The notes: generated by a model from the letters alone, not told the origin. A stretch of DNA of 49,511 nucleotides from Dehalococcoidia bacterium (GCA_041494685.1 JBGQBE010000005.1:62001-111511); one strand, 5' to 3'. Positions 2,953 through 28,890 are shown, counted from the first letter of the stretch. Made by a program: numbers and translations.

Positions 2953-3219
2953 TCACGCCCGCGAGTGTCCGTGGCCGGACTGCTCGCCGTCGCGGATGTC
3001 GTTGCGGCGTTCCGGGACCGGGTCCAGGCCGCCGTCGTTGAGCGGATTGCAGCGCAGGATGCGCCAGACGGCCATCGCGCCGCCGCGCAGCGCGCCGTAC
3101 GTCTCGATCGCCTCGTAGGCGTACTCGGAGCAGGTCGGCAGGAATCTGCAGGCCGGCGGTCTGCCCGGCGACAGTCGGCGCTGGTAGAAGCGGATGGCCG
3201 CGAGGGCGGGCCTCTTCAC
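2953..3219 (-). CDS. yidD: Membrane protein insertion efficiency factor YidD
   Basis: [40 protein letters not shown] signature. Confidence 0.95.
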
Positions 3220-3581
3220 GAGTTCTCCTGGCCGCGCGGCGCGGGCGGCGTCTCCGCCAGCGCACCGGCGCGCTTCATCAATGATATCAGCGCCGTCCGC
3301 AGCGCCTGGAATTCGGCCGTCGCGGCGGGCTTCCGCGCGCCGACCACGATATCCAGCCCCGGGCGGACCGCGGCGCCGCGCGCAATCTCGCGCAGGCGGC
3401 GCTTGGTGCGATTGCGGACGACCGCCCCGCCGACGATCTTCCCGGCGACGAACCCGAAGCGGGTAACGCCGCTATCGTTTGCCAGTACCCGGATCACGAG
3501 GAGCTGGTTGCTCTGGACGCGGCCCTTGCGATACGCCGTCGCGAAGTCCTGGCGCCGCCGCAGCCGCTGTTCTCTACGCAT
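3216..3581 (-). CDS. rnpA: Ribonuclease P protein component
   Basis: [33 protein letters not shown] (RNR motif); GAGG upstream of ATG 3581. Confidence 0.95.
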
Positions 3582-3614
3582 GCGCGGCACCTCGCGGCGC
3601 GGCCGCGGGCGTGG

Positions 3615-3755
3615 CTAGACGACGACCAGCCGCTTCCGGCCCCTGAGCCGGCGCGCGCGCAGCACGTTGCGCCCGGCGGCCGTGGCCATCCGGTGCAGGA
3701 AGCCGTGCCGCCGCTTCCGCGGGATCTTCTTGGGCTGATAGGTGCGCTTCGGCAC
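3615..3755 (-). CDS. rpmH: 50S ribosomal protein L34
   Basis: GTG start at 3755 after AAAGGAGG; (M)[40 protein letters not shown]. Confidence 0.97.
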
Positions 3756-3896
3756 GCCCCCTCCTTTACACGATAAGGCCCCTCTGAAGGGGCGAGCCCC
3801 AGTATATGTGCCAGCCCCCCGGCGAAACAAGGATCCGAATAAGCGCTCCGCCCCGCGCCGCGCCAGGGCGAGCGCTCGCACCCGAGACGAGAGCGA

Positions 3897-4133
3897 ATGA
3901 ACCCGCTGGAGACGGCCCACTACAGCGAGCGGTTCAGTCCGTTCGCGTATCGGTCAGACGAGTGGAAGCAGGTCTACAACAAGCGCGTGGCGGTTAAGCG
4001 CGTGTTCAGCAGGCTCAAGACCTACCGCAAGCGAACAGCATCAGGACGCGGCGGATGCCGAAGCAGCCTTCTTGCGATGATCGTGGCTGCTCTTGGAGTC
4101 GAGAGCCCCAGCGATATGCGGCGATGTGTCTAA
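3897..4133 (+). pseudogene. Decayed C-terminal fragment of a DDE transposase (IS4/IS5-superfamily-like)
   Basis: YNKRVAVKRVFSRLK fits the Y-2-R-3-E-6-K signature with the catalytic E replaced by K. NSIRTRRMPK is readable in a shifted frame just after it. No N-terminal part is present. Confidence 0.6.
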
Positions 4134-4134
4134 C

Positions 4135-4461
4135 CTAGGCCCGACGATTCTCCCGGAGATAGATCATAACGACTTTTTCGAGATCCTCATTCACGACGTA
4201 TACCGGGGCGTACTCCGGGAAGAAATCGCCCGTGAAGACGAACACAACTTCCCCGGAGATGCTCGTGTCCTGAGCGATCTCGTAGACCCAAGTTCGCATC
4301 GGAAATCCGAGTATGGGAATGAGGCGATCGACGTAGAGACCGAACCGCGGATATGGATTGATGACTATCTCAGCGAGACAGGCCTTCCAAGACTTGAGTA
4401 CGTGATCGGAGAAATTCGCAACCTCGGCGGCGACCTTAGCCGAATCGACCGTGTATGCCAC
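4135..4461 (-). CDS. Atypical RelE/ParE-like small protein, putative toxin (module A)
   Basis: 108 aa. N-terminal YTV strand, two helices, then NPY. C-terminal EYAPVYVVNEDLEKVVMIYLR resembles the last RelE strands. Overlaps the upstream gene by 26 nt. Confidence 0.55.
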   Translation of the reverse strand: MAYTVDSAKVAAEVANFSDHVLKSWKACLAEIVINPYPRFGLYVDRLIPILGFPMRTWVYEIAQDTSISGEVVFVFTGDFFPEYAPVYVVNEDLEKVVMIYLRENRRA

Positions 4462-4687
4462 CTCTGCTTGCGTCCCTCCTGCGTAGCTCGGGATGCGCAG
4501 CGAGAACTTCCTGCAAGGCGCGCTCGACGTTCGGGTCCTTTGCGGCCCTTTGCTGAAGTTCTCGTCTCTCAGCCGTGCTCATTTGACGGCGGGGCGTGAG
4601 GTTCTTCCTCGCGTCTGTCAGGAATCGCATGACACCCTCAATGAGCCCTCTGCGCATCTTGTCCTGAGTGGAAAGTGACGGAGACAC
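4436..4687 (-). CDS. Small helical protein, putative antitoxin (module A)
   Basis: 83 aa, or 73 aa from ATG 4657. Shares LTPR and RRxxxxxAxxDPxxxxALxE with the 11078-11434 product. Confidence 0.5.
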   Translation of the reverse strand: MSPSLSTQDKMRRGLIEGVMRFLTDARKNLTPRRQMSTAERRELQQRAAKDPNVERALQEVLAAHPELRRRDASRGGIHGRFG

Positions 4688-4877
4688 AGATCATACCTTC
4701 GCGATGGCGGACTGTCGAGGCACCACCATGATCAGCGCATACCGACGAAATGTCGATCCTCTGCCGATAGAAAGATCAGATCGCTCTCACACGATCCATA
4801 GGCGAGATCGATCAACAGCTTCGGGGAGTTTCGCACCATCCTCTTGTAGCCTCTAGCGAAACTCCCGACCCGGCGAA

Positions 4878-5123
4878 TTAGCCTGCCCCAGAGATCCCGC
4901 AGGGGCGAATCTGACCATCGTCGAGAATGAGGTAGAAGATGGTATAGCCGTTGTTGAGTTTGGCGATGTAAATGCCATCGACCATCGGGAACATGTAGGG
5001 GTTCAGGGAAATCACTTCGCGAAAGAGCGGCTCGAATTCAGTACGCCAAGCGTCCAGTCCGATAGTGGCGTCAACCCGGGCGATGAAGTCCTGCCGAAGA
5101 TCGAGCCTAACTATGTGCCTCAT
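4878..5123 (-). CDS. RelE/ParE-like putative toxin paired with Panacea antitoxin
   Basis: 81 aa with ISLNPYMFP..IYIAK..YTIFYLI; ATG lies 2 nt after the Panacea gene stop. Confidence 0.55.
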   Translation of the reverse strand: MRHIVRLDLRQDFIARVDATIGLDAWRTEFEPLFREVISLNPYMFPMVDGIYIAKLNNGYTIFYLILDDGQIRPCGISGAG

Positions 5124-5125
5124 CG

Positions 5126-5668
5126 CTACTGCTCCATCGCAAGCATCCTTGCGTATTCAACCTCCTCTTGTGTCGGAGGTTCGGGAGAGAGCCACGCCGC
5201 CCGATACGGTATGTCCTCGTTCTCCGCAGTGAGTTTCCAGCCCCACTCCCGGTGCGAAAGCTCGGTCGCTTCGCTGGCATCCTTCTCCCACAAATATTCG
5301 ATCGCTGCGGCGAGAATTGCAACCTCATCCCCGGAGAATAGCGTCAGCTGCGCTTTGCGTTTCGAGACTGGACGCTTCTGTTTGCGGTTGAAGTACGTCC
5401 TGTTCTCCATGACCAGTGCGTGGTCATCCTCCAACTCCGCACGACACGAGAGCATCTCTTTCGGTGCGGGACCCTCCGAGAGATGCCTGTAGGTAGCGCC
5501 AGTGATCGACCAACCGAGTTGCGTGTAGGCACGGAAGTCTGCATAGAACAGAATCTTGTTCAATTTCACGGAGCCGAACCTCGGGTCTGACTCGCTCTTC
5601 TCGCAGATGTAGACGATGGCTTCTTTGAATTTGCGCGCGTCGAAGTCAGGGGTCGCACATAGACTCAT
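5126..5668 (-). CDS. Panacea-domain (DUF4065/SocA-like) antitoxin
   Basis: KLNKILFYADF..G.SITGATY..GPAP and A.ELSELSH-like (ATELSHRE.GW)..IPY motifs typical of DUF4065. Confidence 0.85.
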   Translation of the reverse strand: MSLCATPDFDARKFKEAIVYICEKSESDPRFGSVKLNKILFYADFRAYTQLGWSITGATYRHLSEGPAPKEMLSCRAELEDDHALVMENRTYFNRKQKRPVSKRKAQLTLFSGDEVAILAAAIEYLWEKDASEATELSHREWGWKLTAENEDIPYRAAWLSPEPPTQEEVEYARMLAMEQ

Positions 5669-6080: not shown

Positions 6081-6383
6081 GTGAAAACGATCGAGGCCAC
6101 CGAGTCCGAGATGCGCACCGTCGCTATGCTGCGGGCGATCGCCCACCCCGCCCGCTTCCGCATCGTCAAGCTGCTGGCGGCGCGCCAGGCCTGCGTCTGC
6201 GGCGACATCGTCGACGAGCTGCCGCTGGCGCAGTCGACGGTCTCCGAGCACCTGAAGGTGCTGAAGGACGCCGGCATCGTCCGCGGCACGATCGACGGTC
6301 CGAACACGTGCTACTGCCTGGAGCCGGAGGCGATCGAATGGTTGAAGCGTGAGTTTGGCGCGATCGGCGCCGCGTGCTGCTGA
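6081..6383 (+). CDS. arsR: ArsR/SmtB family transcriptional repressor
   Basis: AIAHPARFRIV..CVCGDIV..LAQSTVSEHLKVLKDAGIV winged HTH with Cys box; C-terminal CC. Confidence 0.92.
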   Translation: MKTIEATESEMRTVAMLRAIAHPARFRIVKLLAARQACVCGDIVDELPLAQSTVSEHLKVLKDAGIVRGTIDGPNTCYCLEPEAIEWLKREFGAIGAACC

Positions 6384-6407
6384 GGCGGCTTTTTTCTTGC
6401 GACAGGC

Positions 6408-6423
6408 ATCGGCTATTTCCGAT
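6408..6423. promoter_or_regulatory. Second ArsR-type operator copy upstream of arsM
   Basis: ATCGGCTATTTCCGAT, 14/16 identical to ATCGTATATTTCCGAT at 6065-6080. Confidence 0.65.
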
Positions 6424-6444
6424 GGTAGTAGGGAGGACAGCGAC

Positions 6445-7179
6445 ATGACCCGGACAGCGGACGAAATCAAGGAAGCGGTGAAGGAGCACTACGGCGAGCG
6501 CGCCAAGAAGGCGTCGGAGTGTTGCGGCACCGACAGCCACCGCGAGCAGCTCTACCTCGTCGATGACGTGGCGGAGCTGCCGGAGACGGTGACCTCGTAC
6601 GGCTGCGGCAACCCGACGGCGATCGCGGGCCTGCGGCCGGGCGAGGTGGTGCTGGACCTGGGCTCAGGGCCGGGGCTGGACTGCTTCCTCGCGGCGAAGC
6701 AGGTGGGCGAGACGGGCAGCGTCATCGGCCTGGACATGACGCAGGACATGCTGGACCTCGCGAACGCCAACCGCGACAAGCTGGGCGCGAAGAACGTCGA
6801 GTTCCGCAAGGGCGAGATGGAGTCGATGCCGGTCGCCGACGCGACGGTGAACGTGATCATCTCAAACTGCGTGATCAACCTGTCGCCCGACAAGGACGCG
6901 GTGTTCCGCGAGGCCTTCCGCGTGCTGGCGCCGGGCGGCCGCTTCCACGTCAGCGACGTGGTGCTGTCGCGCGACCTCACCGGCGAGGAGAAGGACGACC
7001 TGGCGTCGTGGGCCGGCTGCCGCGCCGGCGCGCTGCTGGAATCCGACTACCTGGCGCGGCTCGGCGCGGCCGGCTTCATCGGTGCGCGTGTGGACAGCCG
7101 CGCGAAGGTCGGCGACAACCCGTGGTACAGCGCGACGATCTCGGCATTCAAGGACGCCCCGCGTACGTCGTGCTGCTAG
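6445..7179 (+). CDS. arsM: Arsenite S-adenosylmethionine methyltransferase
   Basis: SYGCGNP, VLDLGSGPGLDC, ISNCVINLSPDK and WAGC motifs; GGGAGG RBS; downstream of arsR. Confidence 0.9.
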   Translation: MTRTADEIKEAVKEHYGERAKKASECCGTDSHREQLYLVDDVAELPETVTSYGCGNPTAIAGLRPGEVVLDLGSGPGLDCFLAAKQVGETGSVIGLDMTQDMLDLANANRDKLGAKNVEFRKGEMESMPVADATVNVIISNCVINLSPDKDAVFREAFRVLAPGGRFHVSDVVLSRDLTGEEKDDLASWAGCRAGALLESDYLARLGAAGFIGARVDSRAKVGDNPWYSATISAFKDAPRTSCC

Positions 7180-10610: not shown

Positions 10611-10805
10611 ATGCCAGACCAATCGGACGCGCTACGGCCGGCGGGCGGAAGCGGACGCAGCTTCCTGGGCGTGCGGCGGATGACGCCGGAGGACGACGGC
10701 GTGCACCTGTACGACGATGCCGGCGCCGAAGTCGGCATCGTGCAATACGGCGAGCGCGTCTACGTCAACGGGCGCGTGATCTCGTTCACGGCGGCGAAGG
10801 GCTGA
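10611..10805 (+). CDS. Small hypothetical protein
   Basis: 64 aa, host-like codons, TACCAT -10 element 6 nt before the ATG. Confidence 0.55.
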   Translation: MPDQSDALRPAGGSGRSFLGVRRMTPEDDGVHLYDDAGAEVGIVQYGERVYVNGRVISFTAAKG

Positions 10806-10833: not shown

Positions 10834-11124
10834 TCACCACCACGGCTTCTCGGCTCTGGTAATGGGCACGTAGCCCGTGTGCCCGCCCACCTCGTCCTCC
10901 CCTGATGGATAGACGCGATACGTGAATACCAGCGGAATCACGCCGTCGTAGTATTGATAGAAGACGCGGCCGTCCCCGTCTGTGTTCTTCTGAATGACGT
11001 CCCGGAAGTGGTAAGGGTTCTCGGAGAGGATCGAGCAGACTTGCTTGAAGAATTCTTGTTGTGCCGGGGAGCAGGAACTAACGGCGCGAAGGACCTCGGG
11101 TGATGGAGCGACTGTGAAGCTCAC
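10834..11124 (-). CDS. Atypical RelE/ParE-like small protein, putative toxin (module B)
   Basis: MSFTVAPSPEV..FKQVCSILSENPY aligns by eye with the N-terminus of 4135-4461. Overlaps the upstream gene by 47 nt. Confidence 0.55.
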   Translation of the reverse strand: MSFTVAPSPEVLRAVSSCSPAQQEFFKQVCSILSENPYHFRDVIQKNTDGDGRVFYQYYDGVIPLVFTYRVYPSGEDEVGGHTGYVPITRAEKPWW

Positions 11125-11434
11125 CCGATCCCAAGCCTTTCACGCGCTGCTCATAGGCGTGATCCGCCTCATCAAGGGCAGCCCGCATCCCTGGATCGGA
11201 GCCAGCGTTTACAAGTGCTTTCCGCCGCTGTTCAGGGGTGATCGTACTGGAATCTATCGCCGCTTCGTAGCGTTCGCGCGGGGTGAGGCCCGGCTTGGGC
11301 TTGAAGCCGAGTCTTGTAAGGGCATTCTTCAGCACGTGGCGTAGACGATCCACTGATGAAGTGTCGGCAGGCTGGGAGCCAGAGACCACCTTCATGACGC
11401 ACATCCGTCCTGCCGAGTCCGCTATCTCGACCAC
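11078..11434 (-). CDS. Small helical protein, putative antitoxin (module B)
   Basis: Contains LTPR and QRRKALVNAGSDPGMRAALDE, matching 4436-4687. Start uncertain (11395, 11404 or 11434). Confidence 0.5.
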   Translation of the reverse strand: MVEIADSAGRMCVMKVVSGSQPADTSSVDRLRHVLKNALTRLGFKPKPGLTPRERYEAAIDSSTITPEQRRKALVNAGSDPGMRAALDEADHAYEQRVKGLGSGELHSRSITRGPSRR

Positions 11435-26705: not shown

Positions 26706-27614
26706 TCATCGCAACTTCCGAGCCGGCCGGGCCGTCGCCGGCCTTATCGGTGGCGGTTCGTACGAGCGGAGGAAGTCGATCGCGGTTGACTTGTCCGCGA
26801 AGTTCCCGTCTATGCGATCGCCGTTGTTGTACCGGACCAGTACCTCGTACCGAACCGTCGGCCCTCCGCCTCCCGAACTCGCGTACTCTTCGATGAAGTC
26901 GATTGCCTCAGCAACCGACGTGCATTCGACGGTGGACCCGTGCAGAGGGAGTACGTGCACTCCCTCAACTGTTCGCCCGATCGACGCCGCTAAGGACTCC
27001 ATGAAGTGGCCGACTTCGGTCTCATTTATCTTGAGTAGCGCACGGGCGATGTGGTTCCGATCCTTGAGCGAGAGAGCGTCCCAAGCGGCTACCTTCATTG
27101 CCAGATCCGCGTCCGGCGTCGACTCGTTGGACGTGGCATCGATACCGCGAGTCTTGAACGCTTTGATCACCGTCTCGGACGGAAAGTACAGGACTTTGAA
27201 CTCAAGCGACTTCAACTGAGCGAGAGCGTTGGCCGTGAAGACTCCAGCGAGAATCGCACCCATGAACGGAGCCGAGTGCTGATGCGTCGCCACGAGTGGC
27301 AAGATTGCCCCCTGGATCTCTTGGGCCTTGTTGCGCGAATGCTTCGTGTACCGGCGCCACGCGGTCTCGATGAACGCCACCGGCGTTCCAATCACTTCCG
27401 GAGTCCCACCCCTCTCAAACACGTAGTCTAAGTCATGGGCATTTCCGTACACGTCGATCCATGTGCACTTGGACCCGCGCCGAGCGGGTCTCACGCCCTT
27501 CTTATCGAGATACACGCCGTGGCTGTCAGCGAACTCACGTAAGAGCGGCTCAATCGATGCTTCGAGGAGATCGCCGATGATCTGCCCGAAGCGATGAGAG
27601 GGCGATCTTGCCAA
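26706..27614 (-). CDS. Putative type II restriction endonuclease
   Basis: Starts 4 nt after the MTase stop (TTG start). PD-(D/E)xK-like layout LLE..HDLDYV..FIETAW. Lower GC than flanks. Confidence 0.7.
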   Translation of the reverse strand: MARSPSHRFGQIIGDLLEASIEPLLREFADSHGVYLDKKGVRPARRGSKCTWIDVYGNAHDLDYVFERGGTPEVIGTPVAFIETAWRRYTKHSRNKAQEIQGAILPLVATHQHSAPFMGAILAGVFTANALAQLKSLEFKVLYFPSETVIKAFKTRGIDATSNESTPDADLAMKVAAWDALSLKDRNHIARALLKINETEVGHFMESLAASIGRTVEGVHVLPLHGSTVECTSVAEAIDFIEEYASSGGGGPTVRYEVLVRYNNGDRIDGNFADKSTAIDFLRSYEPPPIRPATARPARKLR

Positions 27615-27618
27615 CGGA

Positions 27619-28890
27619 CTATCCTTCGACCCAGAGTCGCCCCTCGTGGAGCGGTACTCGGTGCTTTCGATTCCGCCACTTCACGTTGCGATCCCGCGTC
27701 TTCTGGAACTGGTAGCTCTGGAACCCTGCCGCCACGGCTAGCTCGCCGAGCCATTGATCGACCGCAACATGGACACCATACGGAGCCGAATCACCGATGA
27801 CGAAGCACACGCGTCCGCCGTCGGCCGTCACTCGGCGCAGCGCCTTCCAAACCCGCGCAAGATCGGCGAAGTATGCCGCAACTAGAAGGTGATAGGACTT
27901 CTTTCCGCCGTGCGTCAGTCGTTCTTCAGCCAACCGATCACACGCCAACCTAATGTCCGGTGCGATCGGGCGCAGGTTCTCATCATCGAGCAGCACTTCA
28001 AGGTCCGATTTGTCCGCGTCTAGATGCTGCGTGCACGAACGCATAAGGCGTGTTCGCACCTTCGCGTGCAAGTCGCCCCAACTCCGTATGTCACCCCAGA
28101 ATGACATCTCTAGCCGAGTCGCGTCGGCGTAGTCGTAGTTGTTCATGTACGGTGGCGATGTCAGGACCAGATTCGCCCATCCGTCGGGAACGGATGCGCA
28201 TGAGCGCGCATCTTCGCAAAGCGGCGTGGCAACGGCGCTATCCCCGTCCATCTGACGAATGCGGATGTCCTTCGACATCAACTCGATCTGTACCCGAAAC
28301 GCCTCGTAGGGCCGCAGCGTCCTGGCCTTGCTCTTGTTCGGGAGAACGTACTGCCATTGCGCCGTCCCGACGGGCGAACAAGATCGCAGAACAGCCGTTA
28401 TCGCCAACCAAACTAATTCCGACGCTGAACTCTCGTCCGCCAGTTCCATCCAGGCCTGCTTGAGTGCATCCAACTCCGCCAGCACATCTGGAGGAAAGCA
28501 TTTGACAATGAGTGCCGGATGGGAACCATCCACGGTCCGTTGGCTAGCCTTTGCTCGCTCGATGACTTCCCCTGCCATCTCGCAGAATTGATCGACGGGA
28601 ACCCGCCACGCCAGTTTCGCACTCGCGATGCGTGCTACGAACGGGTGCGCCTCGACTCCAAACGCTGCGGCTCCGAGTCGCTCAGCCTCTACAAGCACGG
28701 TTCCCGCGCCAGAGAAGGGATCGAGGACCCTCACGGGGCCGCTCCTCGCCATCTGTTCGACTTCGCGCGCGACCCAGTTCGCCGAGAAGCCCGCCGAATA
28801 CCTGAACCACCGGTGGATCGGCAGACTCAGATTATCGGCGAAGGTCGAACTTCGGTCTGGCGGGGCTACGAGCACTCCCTGCTCAACCAT
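27619..28890 (-). CDS. DNA amino-methyltransferase, probably N4-cytosine (alpha-class motif order)
   Basis: HRWFRYSAGFS; motif I DPFSGAGT precedes motif IV TSPPY; VIGDS. Confidence 0.9.
   Translation of the reverse strand: MVEQGVLVAPPDRSSTFADNLSLPIHRWFRYSAGFSANWVAREVEQMARSGPVRVLDPFSGAGTVLVEAERLGAAAFGVEAHPFVARIASAKLAWRVPVDQFCEMAGEVIERAKASQRTVDGSHPALIVKCFPPDVLAELDALKQAWMELADESSASELVWLAITAVLRSCSPVGTAQWQYVLPNKSKARTLRPYEAFRVQIELMSKDIRIRQMDGDSAVATPLCEDARSCASVPDGWANLVLTSPPYMNNYDYADATRLEMSFWGDIRSWGDLHAKVRTRLMRSCTQHLDADKSDLEVLLDDENLRPIAPDIRLACDRLAEERLTHGGKKSYHLLVAAYFADLARVWKALRRVTADGGRVCFVIGDSAPYGVHVAVDQWLGELAVAAGFQSYQFQKTRDRNVKWRNRKHRVPLHEGRLWVEG

Follow-up and report, generated by a model that had tools for sequence, protein, structure and literature searches.

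Two paralogous gene pairs of a Dehalococcoidia bacterium as probable type II toxin–antitoxin operons with an acidic RelE/ParE-fold toxin and a very basic antitoxin of an unnamed family

The minus strand of a 49,511-nucleotide stretch of DNA from a Dehalococcoidia bacterium (GCA_041494685.1, JBGQBE010000005.1:62001-111511; hereafter the window, numbered from its first letter) carries, at positions 4135-4687, two small overlapping genes that raise a simple question: what kind of system do they form, and how much of it is new? An initial annotation, made from the sequence alone, described them as module A of a duplicated, unrecognised two-gene system and as a candidate new type II toxin–antitoxin (TA) family, with a second copy, here called module B, at 10834-11434. 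In our reading, both loci are probably type II TA operons of the RelE/ParE (BECR-fold) superfamily. Annotation pipelines would call all four genes hypothetical, and the identification draws on gene architecture, predicted structure, homology between the two modules, and the fate of the genes in related genomes.

In module A, the upstream gene, antitoxin A (4436-4687, minus strand), is an open reading frame (ORF) of 83 amino acids (aa) when read from GTG 4687; its product is Arg-rich and basic, with an isoelectric point (pI) of 11.6. ATG 4657 and ATG 4630 are the other start candidates, and one homologue begins at the residue that matches ATG 4630. The downstream gene, toxin A (4135-4461, minus strand), encodes 108 aa with a pI of 4.9. 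It starts at GTG 4461, within the final antitoxin A codons, and the two genes overlap by 26 nt, out of frame, with the antitoxin first. An AGGAGG motif at 4475-4480 (minus strand), which would serve as the ribosome-binding site of toxin A, is formed by the Arg codons R70-R71 of antitoxin A and lies 13 nt 5' of GTG 4461. Because both this motif and the start of toxin A sit inside antitoxin A codons, the arrangement suggests translational coupling of the two genes. Directly 5' of antitoxin A stands a promoter-like site that matches a sigma-70-like consensus, TCGACA-17-TATGAT (4690-4718, minus strand), and it is overlapped by a palindrome, CCTTCGCGATGG (4696-4707), a candidate operator. A consensus promoter scan of the region around module A returned three sites against 0.8 expected.

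Module B has the identical gene order and strand, and its toxin starts 6663 nt from the start of toxin A. Antitoxin B (11078-11434, minus strand) is a 118-aa ORF from GTG 11434, with a pI of 10.0 and alternative starts at ATG 11403 or 11394. It overlaps toxin B (10834-11124, minus strand; 96 aa, pI 5.2) by 47 nt, again out of frame and with the antitoxin first. The conserved core of antitoxin A, VMRFLTDAKKNL..PRRxMSTAERRxLQRxAAKDPxVERALQExLAAxPELRRxD, recurs in antitoxin B (LTPRER..TPEQRRKALVNAGSDPGMRAALDEA), where it carries an additional 9-residue insertion; toxin B, for its part, lacks a segment of about 19 residues that is present in toxin A (A residues 41-59). The initial annotation had described just such a layout, two collinear modules on one strand about 6.7 kb apart with out-of-frame overlaps, and the strings that it quoted (LTPR, ERR..DP..AL.E, MAYTV/MSFTV, NPY, EYAPVY) are all found in the sequence. 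An ArsR-methyltransferase pair, purA and other genes intervene between the modules, which are therefore separate loci and not a tandem duplication. For two short ORFs nearby, at 3897-4133 and 10611-10805, Pfam gave no match.

AlphaFold2 (AF2) models place both downstream proteins in the RelE/ParE (BECR) fold, an assignment that we consider sound as far as models allow and that agrees with what the initial annotation had read from the beta-alpha-alpha pattern. In the model of toxin A, a strand (residues 2-5) and two helices (7-15 and 19-34) are followed by five strands, and the elements of toxin B come in the same order. Foldseek ranked RelE, aRelE, YoeB and HigB2 first for toxin A (probability 0.96-1.00), and matched toxin B to the archaeal RelE 1wmi_A with a probability of 0.99 and TM-scores of 0.65/0.70. 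In structural alignments with VIA-align, toxin A reached Z 11.2 to 1wmi_A (root-mean-square deviation 3.2, 86/88 residues aligned), 10.6 to 9g12_A (RelE1), 10.5 to 4fxe_F (E. coli RelE), 10.2 to 6n90_B (a YoeB/ParE toxin) and 9.5 to 6xrw_A (ParE). The first 46 matches listed were RelE/ParE-type TA toxins except for one insecticidal toxin, and Z fell below 5 afterwards. This Foldseek-seeded comparison yielded 55 chains at Z≥8; a wide search of 48,161 chains, independent of Foldseek, gave a top Z of 11.0 and 18 chains at Z≥8, all of them TA toxins of the superfamily. For toxin B, the VIA-align score against 1wmi_A was Z 8.6, and RelE/ParE-fold proteins made up all of the first 44 matches listed.

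In sequence searches, none of the four proteins rose above noise in Pfam, NCBIfam, PADLOC or PHROGs. Toxin A had no Pfam match at E≤1, the Pfam matches of toxin B were just NETI and DUF3177 (E about 0.2), and the toxin A profile returned only noise against PDB sequences. The families nevertheless have members: toxin A has 21 database homologues and toxin B has 15, and a full HMMER scan of 1.84 billion cluster representatives put the family at only 46 proteins at E≤1e-3. One of these, P0066 (2854 aa), was rejected as a spurious homologue, being a TPS/YDG-repeat protein. By sequence, the toxin forms a new family, but one that belongs to the known RelE/ParE superfamily and is not wholly new by fold; the word "new" in the initial annotation is thus right for the sequence families of toxin and antitoxin and wrong for the fold.

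The relationship between the two modules is plainest in the antitoxins, which are 28% identical (BLASTP E 1e-5) and whose Smith-Waterman score of 70, compared with 28 ± 5.3 for shuffled sequences (z 8.0), was reached by 0/2000 shuffles. As single sequences, the toxins have no significant likeness (BLASTP E 0.3), and their full-length score was reached in 398/2000 shuffles; over the first 40 residues only, in a post hoc test, 28/2000 shuffles reached the score. Narrow family profiles of the two toxins gave an hhalign E of 0.0023 with a probability of 12.6%, and broad ones a probability of 92.5% (E 4.9e-7) over 71 columns. The similarity that had been proposed for both pairs of proteins therefore exceeds that of shuffled controls for the upstream pair, and for the downstream pair it emerges between family profiles and not between the two sequences. 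In addition, a third-subfamily toxin from relatives, L017, scored 94.7% in hhalign against the A family and 95.6% against a toxin B profile that excludes it. Because the broad toxin profiles match and the L017 subfamily links both toxin families, modules A and B are, as judged from their sequences, ancient paralogues. Antitoxin B is the second and sole other match of the antitoxin profile genome-wide (E 2e-11); a single-sequence search of the bacterium's own genome with antitoxin A missed it, and the profile recovered it. A recent duplication is contradicted by the 28% identity of the antitoxins, by toxins that are unrecognisable pairwise, and by purA and the other housekeeping genes that intervene, so that "duplicated" holds in the sense of paralogy and not of a recent event.

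The partner protein belongs to no family that could be named, as the initial annotation had also concluded. A core of the form T..ERR......A.DP.V..AL.E.LA..PE.RR is common, in alignments, to antitoxins A and B and to the partners of the third subfamily; antitoxin A has six database homologues, and relatives of antitoxin B occur at loci L015 and L016. The 19 antitoxin-family members showed no consistent Pfam family, the best match of their profile among PDB sequences had an E of 0.22 and lay in unrelated proteins, with no ParD or PaaA2 match, and the ESM Atlas held no usable match for either antitoxin. In these sequence-level searches, the antitoxins bore no signature of ribbon-helix-helix RelB/ParD/DinJ, Phd/YefM, helix-turn-helix HigA/Xre, PaaA2 or Panacea. 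The antitoxin is predicted to be helical and appears to represent an unnamed family, which may still have a structural kinship to known antitoxins.

If toxin and partner form one system, they should be found together, and in relatives they are. An antitoxin-like ORF lies directly upstream in 7/7 A-type loci of relatives; in B-type and third-type loci, the partner is upstream in 4/5, the fifth (L018) having both genes degraded; and in metagenomes it is upstream in 3/3 distinct true loci. No intact toxin without an upstream antitoxin was found among the loci examined in relatives and metagenomes, so that the partner is present wherever the toxin is intact. Through the antitoxin profile, two further subtypes were recognised: L076 (G004:C77), with an intact, acidic 107-aa toxin of pI 5.3 that scores 84% in hhalign against the A family, and L077 (G026:C1), with a more distant toxin broken by an early frameshift. 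A metagenome match, L059, was rejected as a false match in a low-complexity peptidase. Two viral-contig matches were likewise judged spurious, since they consist only of a short FFPEY-type stretch, which at L060, the one of these loci that was read, sits within a 188-aa Cys-rich protein; the viral-contig matches hold no evidence of a phage location of the module.

Both families were found in only one Dehalococcoidia family, and their distribution within it is patchy. The toxin A profile matched 7/35 genomes of the same family, 0/25 genomes of four sister families and 0/400 other genomes of the phylum; the toxin B profile matched 4/35 same-family genomes and the antitoxin profile 13/35 (a count that includes the unpublished genome G021), each with 0/25 in the sister families. 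The loci of these relatives also record how the modules decay. Among 17 antitoxin-bearing places that were read in relatives, two further places in G021 being left out, the antitoxin is open and the toxin is intact in nine and broken or absent in eight; the reverse was found in none. The toxin was lost through an in-frame TGA at a conserved Cys (L010), through frameshifts (L016, L019, L073, L077) and through deletions that leave 8-14 N-terminal codons (L075, L069), and at L071 there is no trace of it. Five antitoxin matches had been flagged with internal stops; the ORF of the conserved core is open in all five, and the flagged stops presumably fall within the N-terminal stretch of the profile, where conservation is poor. 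Such an asymmetry, with the toxin broken and its partner kept, is what one would expect if the two are toxin and antidote. Together with fold and linkage, this asymmetry supports the divergent TA module that had been proposed.

These patterns bear on two other explanations. The genes might not be a TA system at all but a conserved operon, in which a small basic protein binds nucleic acid and a RelE-fold protein, domesticated and non-toxic, has another role, for instance in regulation. Such a RelE-fold protein could well be acidic and without an invariant catalytic residue, as is the case here, PADLOC returned no match, and the module keeps one chromosomal position next to arsR, which the window shares with at least four other loci and which looks like vertical inheritance and not mobility. 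However, loss or breakage of the downstream gene in 8/17 loci with the upstream gene open, and never the reverse, is unexpected for a cooperative function, and the absence of intact toxins without partner argues in the same direction. The pair is moreover very patchy among close relatives, it exists as two paralogous copies in one genome that adjoin a third TA-like pair, and overlapping small genes are the classic type II architecture. We therefore hold a non-TA operon to be improbable. The second explanation exchanges the roles, with the basic upstream protein as toxin and the acidic RelE-fold protein as antidote. It can appeal to a charge opposite to that of RelBE (upstream pI 11.4, downstream pI 4.9) and to the toxin-first gene orders that occur in the RelE/ParE superfamily, for example in HigBA. 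Against it, the upstream gene is intact alone in eight loci, where a toxin without antidote should not persist, no intact downstream gene was found without its partner, and in all solved pairs among the matches the toxin is the member with the RelE fold; reversed roles are thus very improbable.

The charge of the two proteins sets the modules apart from RelBE. Median pI is 4.9 in the toxin A family (n=21), 5.2 in the toxin B family (n=15) and 11.4 in the antitoxins (n=19), so that the polarity is inverted with respect to RelBE: the toxin is acidic and the antitoxin very basic. This acidity is not a proteome-wide bias, because 25 canonical PF05016 toxins from the relatives, taken as a control, have a median pI of 10.1. 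Seven of these 25 are acidic, and all seven belong to a 12-member subgroup of ParE-like toxins of 103 aa (L024-L038), in which the pI of the seven is 4.5-6.1; the 13 RelE-like toxins (86 aa) range from 9.85 to 11.74. As a side observation, in front of the L024-L038 toxins stands a conserved ORF that resembles an antitoxin and encodes about 65-70 aa (MKTAKQE..LPDDVS...L.FKASV.RGL....RGE).

Since the toxin is acidic and devoid of an invariant catalytic-type residue, and since the acidic PF05016 toxins of relatives all fall in the ParE-like subgroup, we lean towards a toxin that acts as ParE does, without catalysis, on a protein target, for example DNA gyrase, and would give this about an even chance. 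A RelE-like cleavage of RNA on the ribosome is a somewhat weaker candidate, and some other target, or a former toxin now harmless, is rather unlikely. The initial annotation had noted that the basic residues of RelE RNases are missing and had allowed for a non-RNase toxin. The first remark is roughly right, in that the protein is acidic and none of its polar residues is invariant among 29 members of the A family, yet Arg is frequent at positions 39, 46, 56 and 103, and Y60, E61 and E72 are also among the conserved residues; the second fits these features, which keep it open.

Several observations count against the TA reading or against its ParE-like extension. The promoter and operator of module A are consensus matches only. 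Confidence in the AF2 models is moderate (pLDDT, the predicted local distance difference test, 73.6 for toxin A and 64.7 for toxin B), the alignments behind them being shallow, with 21 and 15 sequences, and the Foldseek E-values are weak, at 6e-3 for toxin A and 6e-2 for toxin B. None of the 29 A-family members reaches the Pfam RelE/ParE cut-offs, with only 2/29 giving a weak PF05016 signal (best E 0.033). In hhalign, the A family scores 48.6% (E 1.8e-4, N-terminal 38 columns) against the RelE-like PF05016 group of relatives and 3.5% against the ParE-like group, when the two canonical groups score 98.7% to each other. Frameshifts in metagenome-assembled genomes may be assembly errors, which the three deletions cannot be. 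The absence of an invariant polar residue would also fit a protein that is no longer toxic. Finally, both in structure and in profile comparisons the closest neighbours are of the RelE and not of the ParE type, which cuts against the ParE-like lean.

This last point is the core of a further explanation, in which the pair is the same TA system and the toxin is a RelE-like RNase that acts in the ribosome or on rRNA. In structure, RelE and YoeB come closest, with Z from 11.2 down to 10.2 where the best ParE reaches 9.5, the wide search gave the same order, and the RelE-like group provides the only profile signal to canonical toxins. In addition, many members have Arg at positions 56 and 103, of which the latter lies on the last strand and may correspond to a catalytic Arg that RelE carries there. 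The general prior points the same way: in a survey of the fold, 11 of 13 Pfam BECR-fold toxin families are described as cleaving RNA and most BECR-fold TA families as RNases (PMC11980606). The difference in Z between RelE and ParE neighbours is, however, less than 2 units. The toxin medians of pI 4.9 and 5.2 lie far from the 9.85-11.74 of the relatives' 13 RelE-like toxins, the 29 members have no invariant residue that is basic, His or Tyr, and the C-terminal Tyr-bearing tail (TY) seen in nearly all canonical RelE-like sequences of relatives is absent, because the toxin stops 5 residues past the last strand. On balance, an RNase of this kind is possible and, in our view, doubtful. The same survey states that a new BECR-fold toxin is not easily assigned to the mRNases or the gyrase inhibitors (PMC11980606).

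Returning to the probable type II TA operon, we infer binding, neutralisation, autoregulation, toxicity and target from the features above, and propose the following working. A single promoter would drive the gene of the small, very basic antitoxin and then the overlapping toxin gene, and the two proteins would probably be made in a coupled fashion. Contacts made by conserved helices in the middle and at the C-terminus of the antitoxin would hold the acidic toxin in an inactive complex, and the antitoxin would probably act as repressor of the operon as well. Upon loss or degradation of the antitoxin, the free toxin would arrest growth. A bolder version can be formulated, which we regard as unlikely: an acidic BECR-fold toxin that makes no contact with RNA would bind a basic cellular target, for instance gyrase, a ribosomal protein or one that binds DNA, perhaps as a mimic of nucleic acid; its Arg-rich antitoxin, of a new fold, would mimic that target and act as DNA-binding repressor; and the system would have originated, and diversified into at least four subfamilies, inside one uncultured Dehalococcoidia family.

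The surroundings of the modules also deserve description. Module A lies beside genes for an ArsR-family regulator (6081-6383, plus strand) and an S-adenosylmethionine-dependent (SAM) methyltransferase (6349-7179, plus strand). An ArsR neighbour next to an A-type module occurs in at least four loci as well (L007/L022, L008, L058, L069), and this shared neighbour implies that module A occupies a conserved chromosomal site in the lineage. In the window, a third TA-like pair (4878-5668, minus strand), directly upstream of module A, is inserted between module A and the ArsR gene. Its first gene encodes a SocA/Panacea-domain protein (5126-5668, minus strand; 180 aa, PF13274 E 3.4e-12) and its second (4878-5123, minus strand) an 81-aa protein of no family; past the stop of the second lies an 11-nt perfect inverted repeat (4824-4866). 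The 81-aa protein was considered as a relative of toxin A or B and dismissed, as comparisons gave no relation to either. Across 4-6 kb, G+C content is 0.56-0.58, compared with about 0.68 in the surroundings. A second low-G+C patch (0.59-0.60) at 26706-28890, on the minus strand, comprises a DNA methylase (27619-28890, minus strand; 423 aa, PF01555 N6_N4_Mtase E 1.1e-10) and an adjoining 302-aa protein (26706-27614, minus strand) with no Pfam match, which may form a restriction-modification pair. Just downstream of module A, ORF translations at 2953-3920 (minus strand) resemble, by eye, rnpA, yidD and rpmH, a likeness that may place the window close to the origin of chromosome replication.

More generally, the known part of these modules is their fold and operon logic, and the new part is the toxin family, the antitoxin family and the charge inversion. 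They add a RelE/ParE toxin sequence family that current Pfam and NCBIfam models miss and an antitoxin family without recognisable relatives. The reversed charge offers a clean test of how the fold is neutralised and of whether acidity predicts a non-RNase, ParE-like target, and the loci in which the toxin has decayed and the antitoxin survived record the death of modules in a slow-growing, uncultured lineage.

Among known systems, RelBE provides the best structural matches. The entries concerned are the archaeal aRelE-aRelB (1wmi), the E. coli complex (4fxe) and M. tuberculosis RelBE1/2 (9g12, 3g5o), with Z of 11.2, 10.6, 10.5 and 10.4 for toxin A and 8.6, 7.6, 7.4 and 7.0 for toxin B. RelBE and the present modules share the antitoxin-first operon and the overlapping small genes. 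In contrast to RelBE, the toxins described here stand outside Pfam sequence membership, are acidic and have no invariant catalytic residues, toxin A bears the extra segment of about 19 residues, and the antitoxin is strongly basic, with neither a ribbon-helix-helix signature nor a Pfam match. A search of the literature for pairs of an acidic RelE/ParE toxin and a basic antitoxin gave no relevant result.

With ParDE and PaaA2-ParE2 (6xrw, 8c24, 8c26, 5czf), the likeness lies in the RelE/ParE fold, to which toxin A aligns with Z 9.5-8.7 and in which RNase residues are not conserved, and with the ParE-like PF05016 toxins of relatives in the acidic pI, found in 7/12 of them. A further likeness would be to PaaA2, a small helical antitoxin that is not known to have a DNA-binding domain. 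The modules differ from these systems in that hhalign to the ParE-like group is 3.5%, that PF05016 signals are sub-threshold and limited to 2/29 members, and that the antitoxin matches neither ParD nor PaaA2.

A further parallel is RelS-RelI of M. tuberculosis, which is reported as an atypical, previously undetected RelE/ParE-like toxin with a unique all-helical antitoxin unlike known ones, discovered through the high gene flux of an adjacent gene pair (PMC13284704). As in the loci described here, an atypical RelE/ParE-like toxin is thus paired with an antitoxin of no known family. PDB entry 9SDC was not among the toxin A structural matches or the toxin A and antitoxin PDB sequence matches, in a library that may not include it. 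According to the same report, RelS is BrnT-like, has a conserved catalytic His and cleaves 16S rRNA, and the acidic residues D8 and D12 of RelI contact basic toxin residues to neutralise it (PMC13284704). The charge polarity described there is the opposite of that in modules A and B. Lastly, the modules have the same fold class and type II operon logic as the 13 Pfam BECR-fold families of the survey cited above (Gerdes, 2025; PMC11980606). Neither toxin reaches any of these models, and the two would constitute a further sequence family outside the 13.

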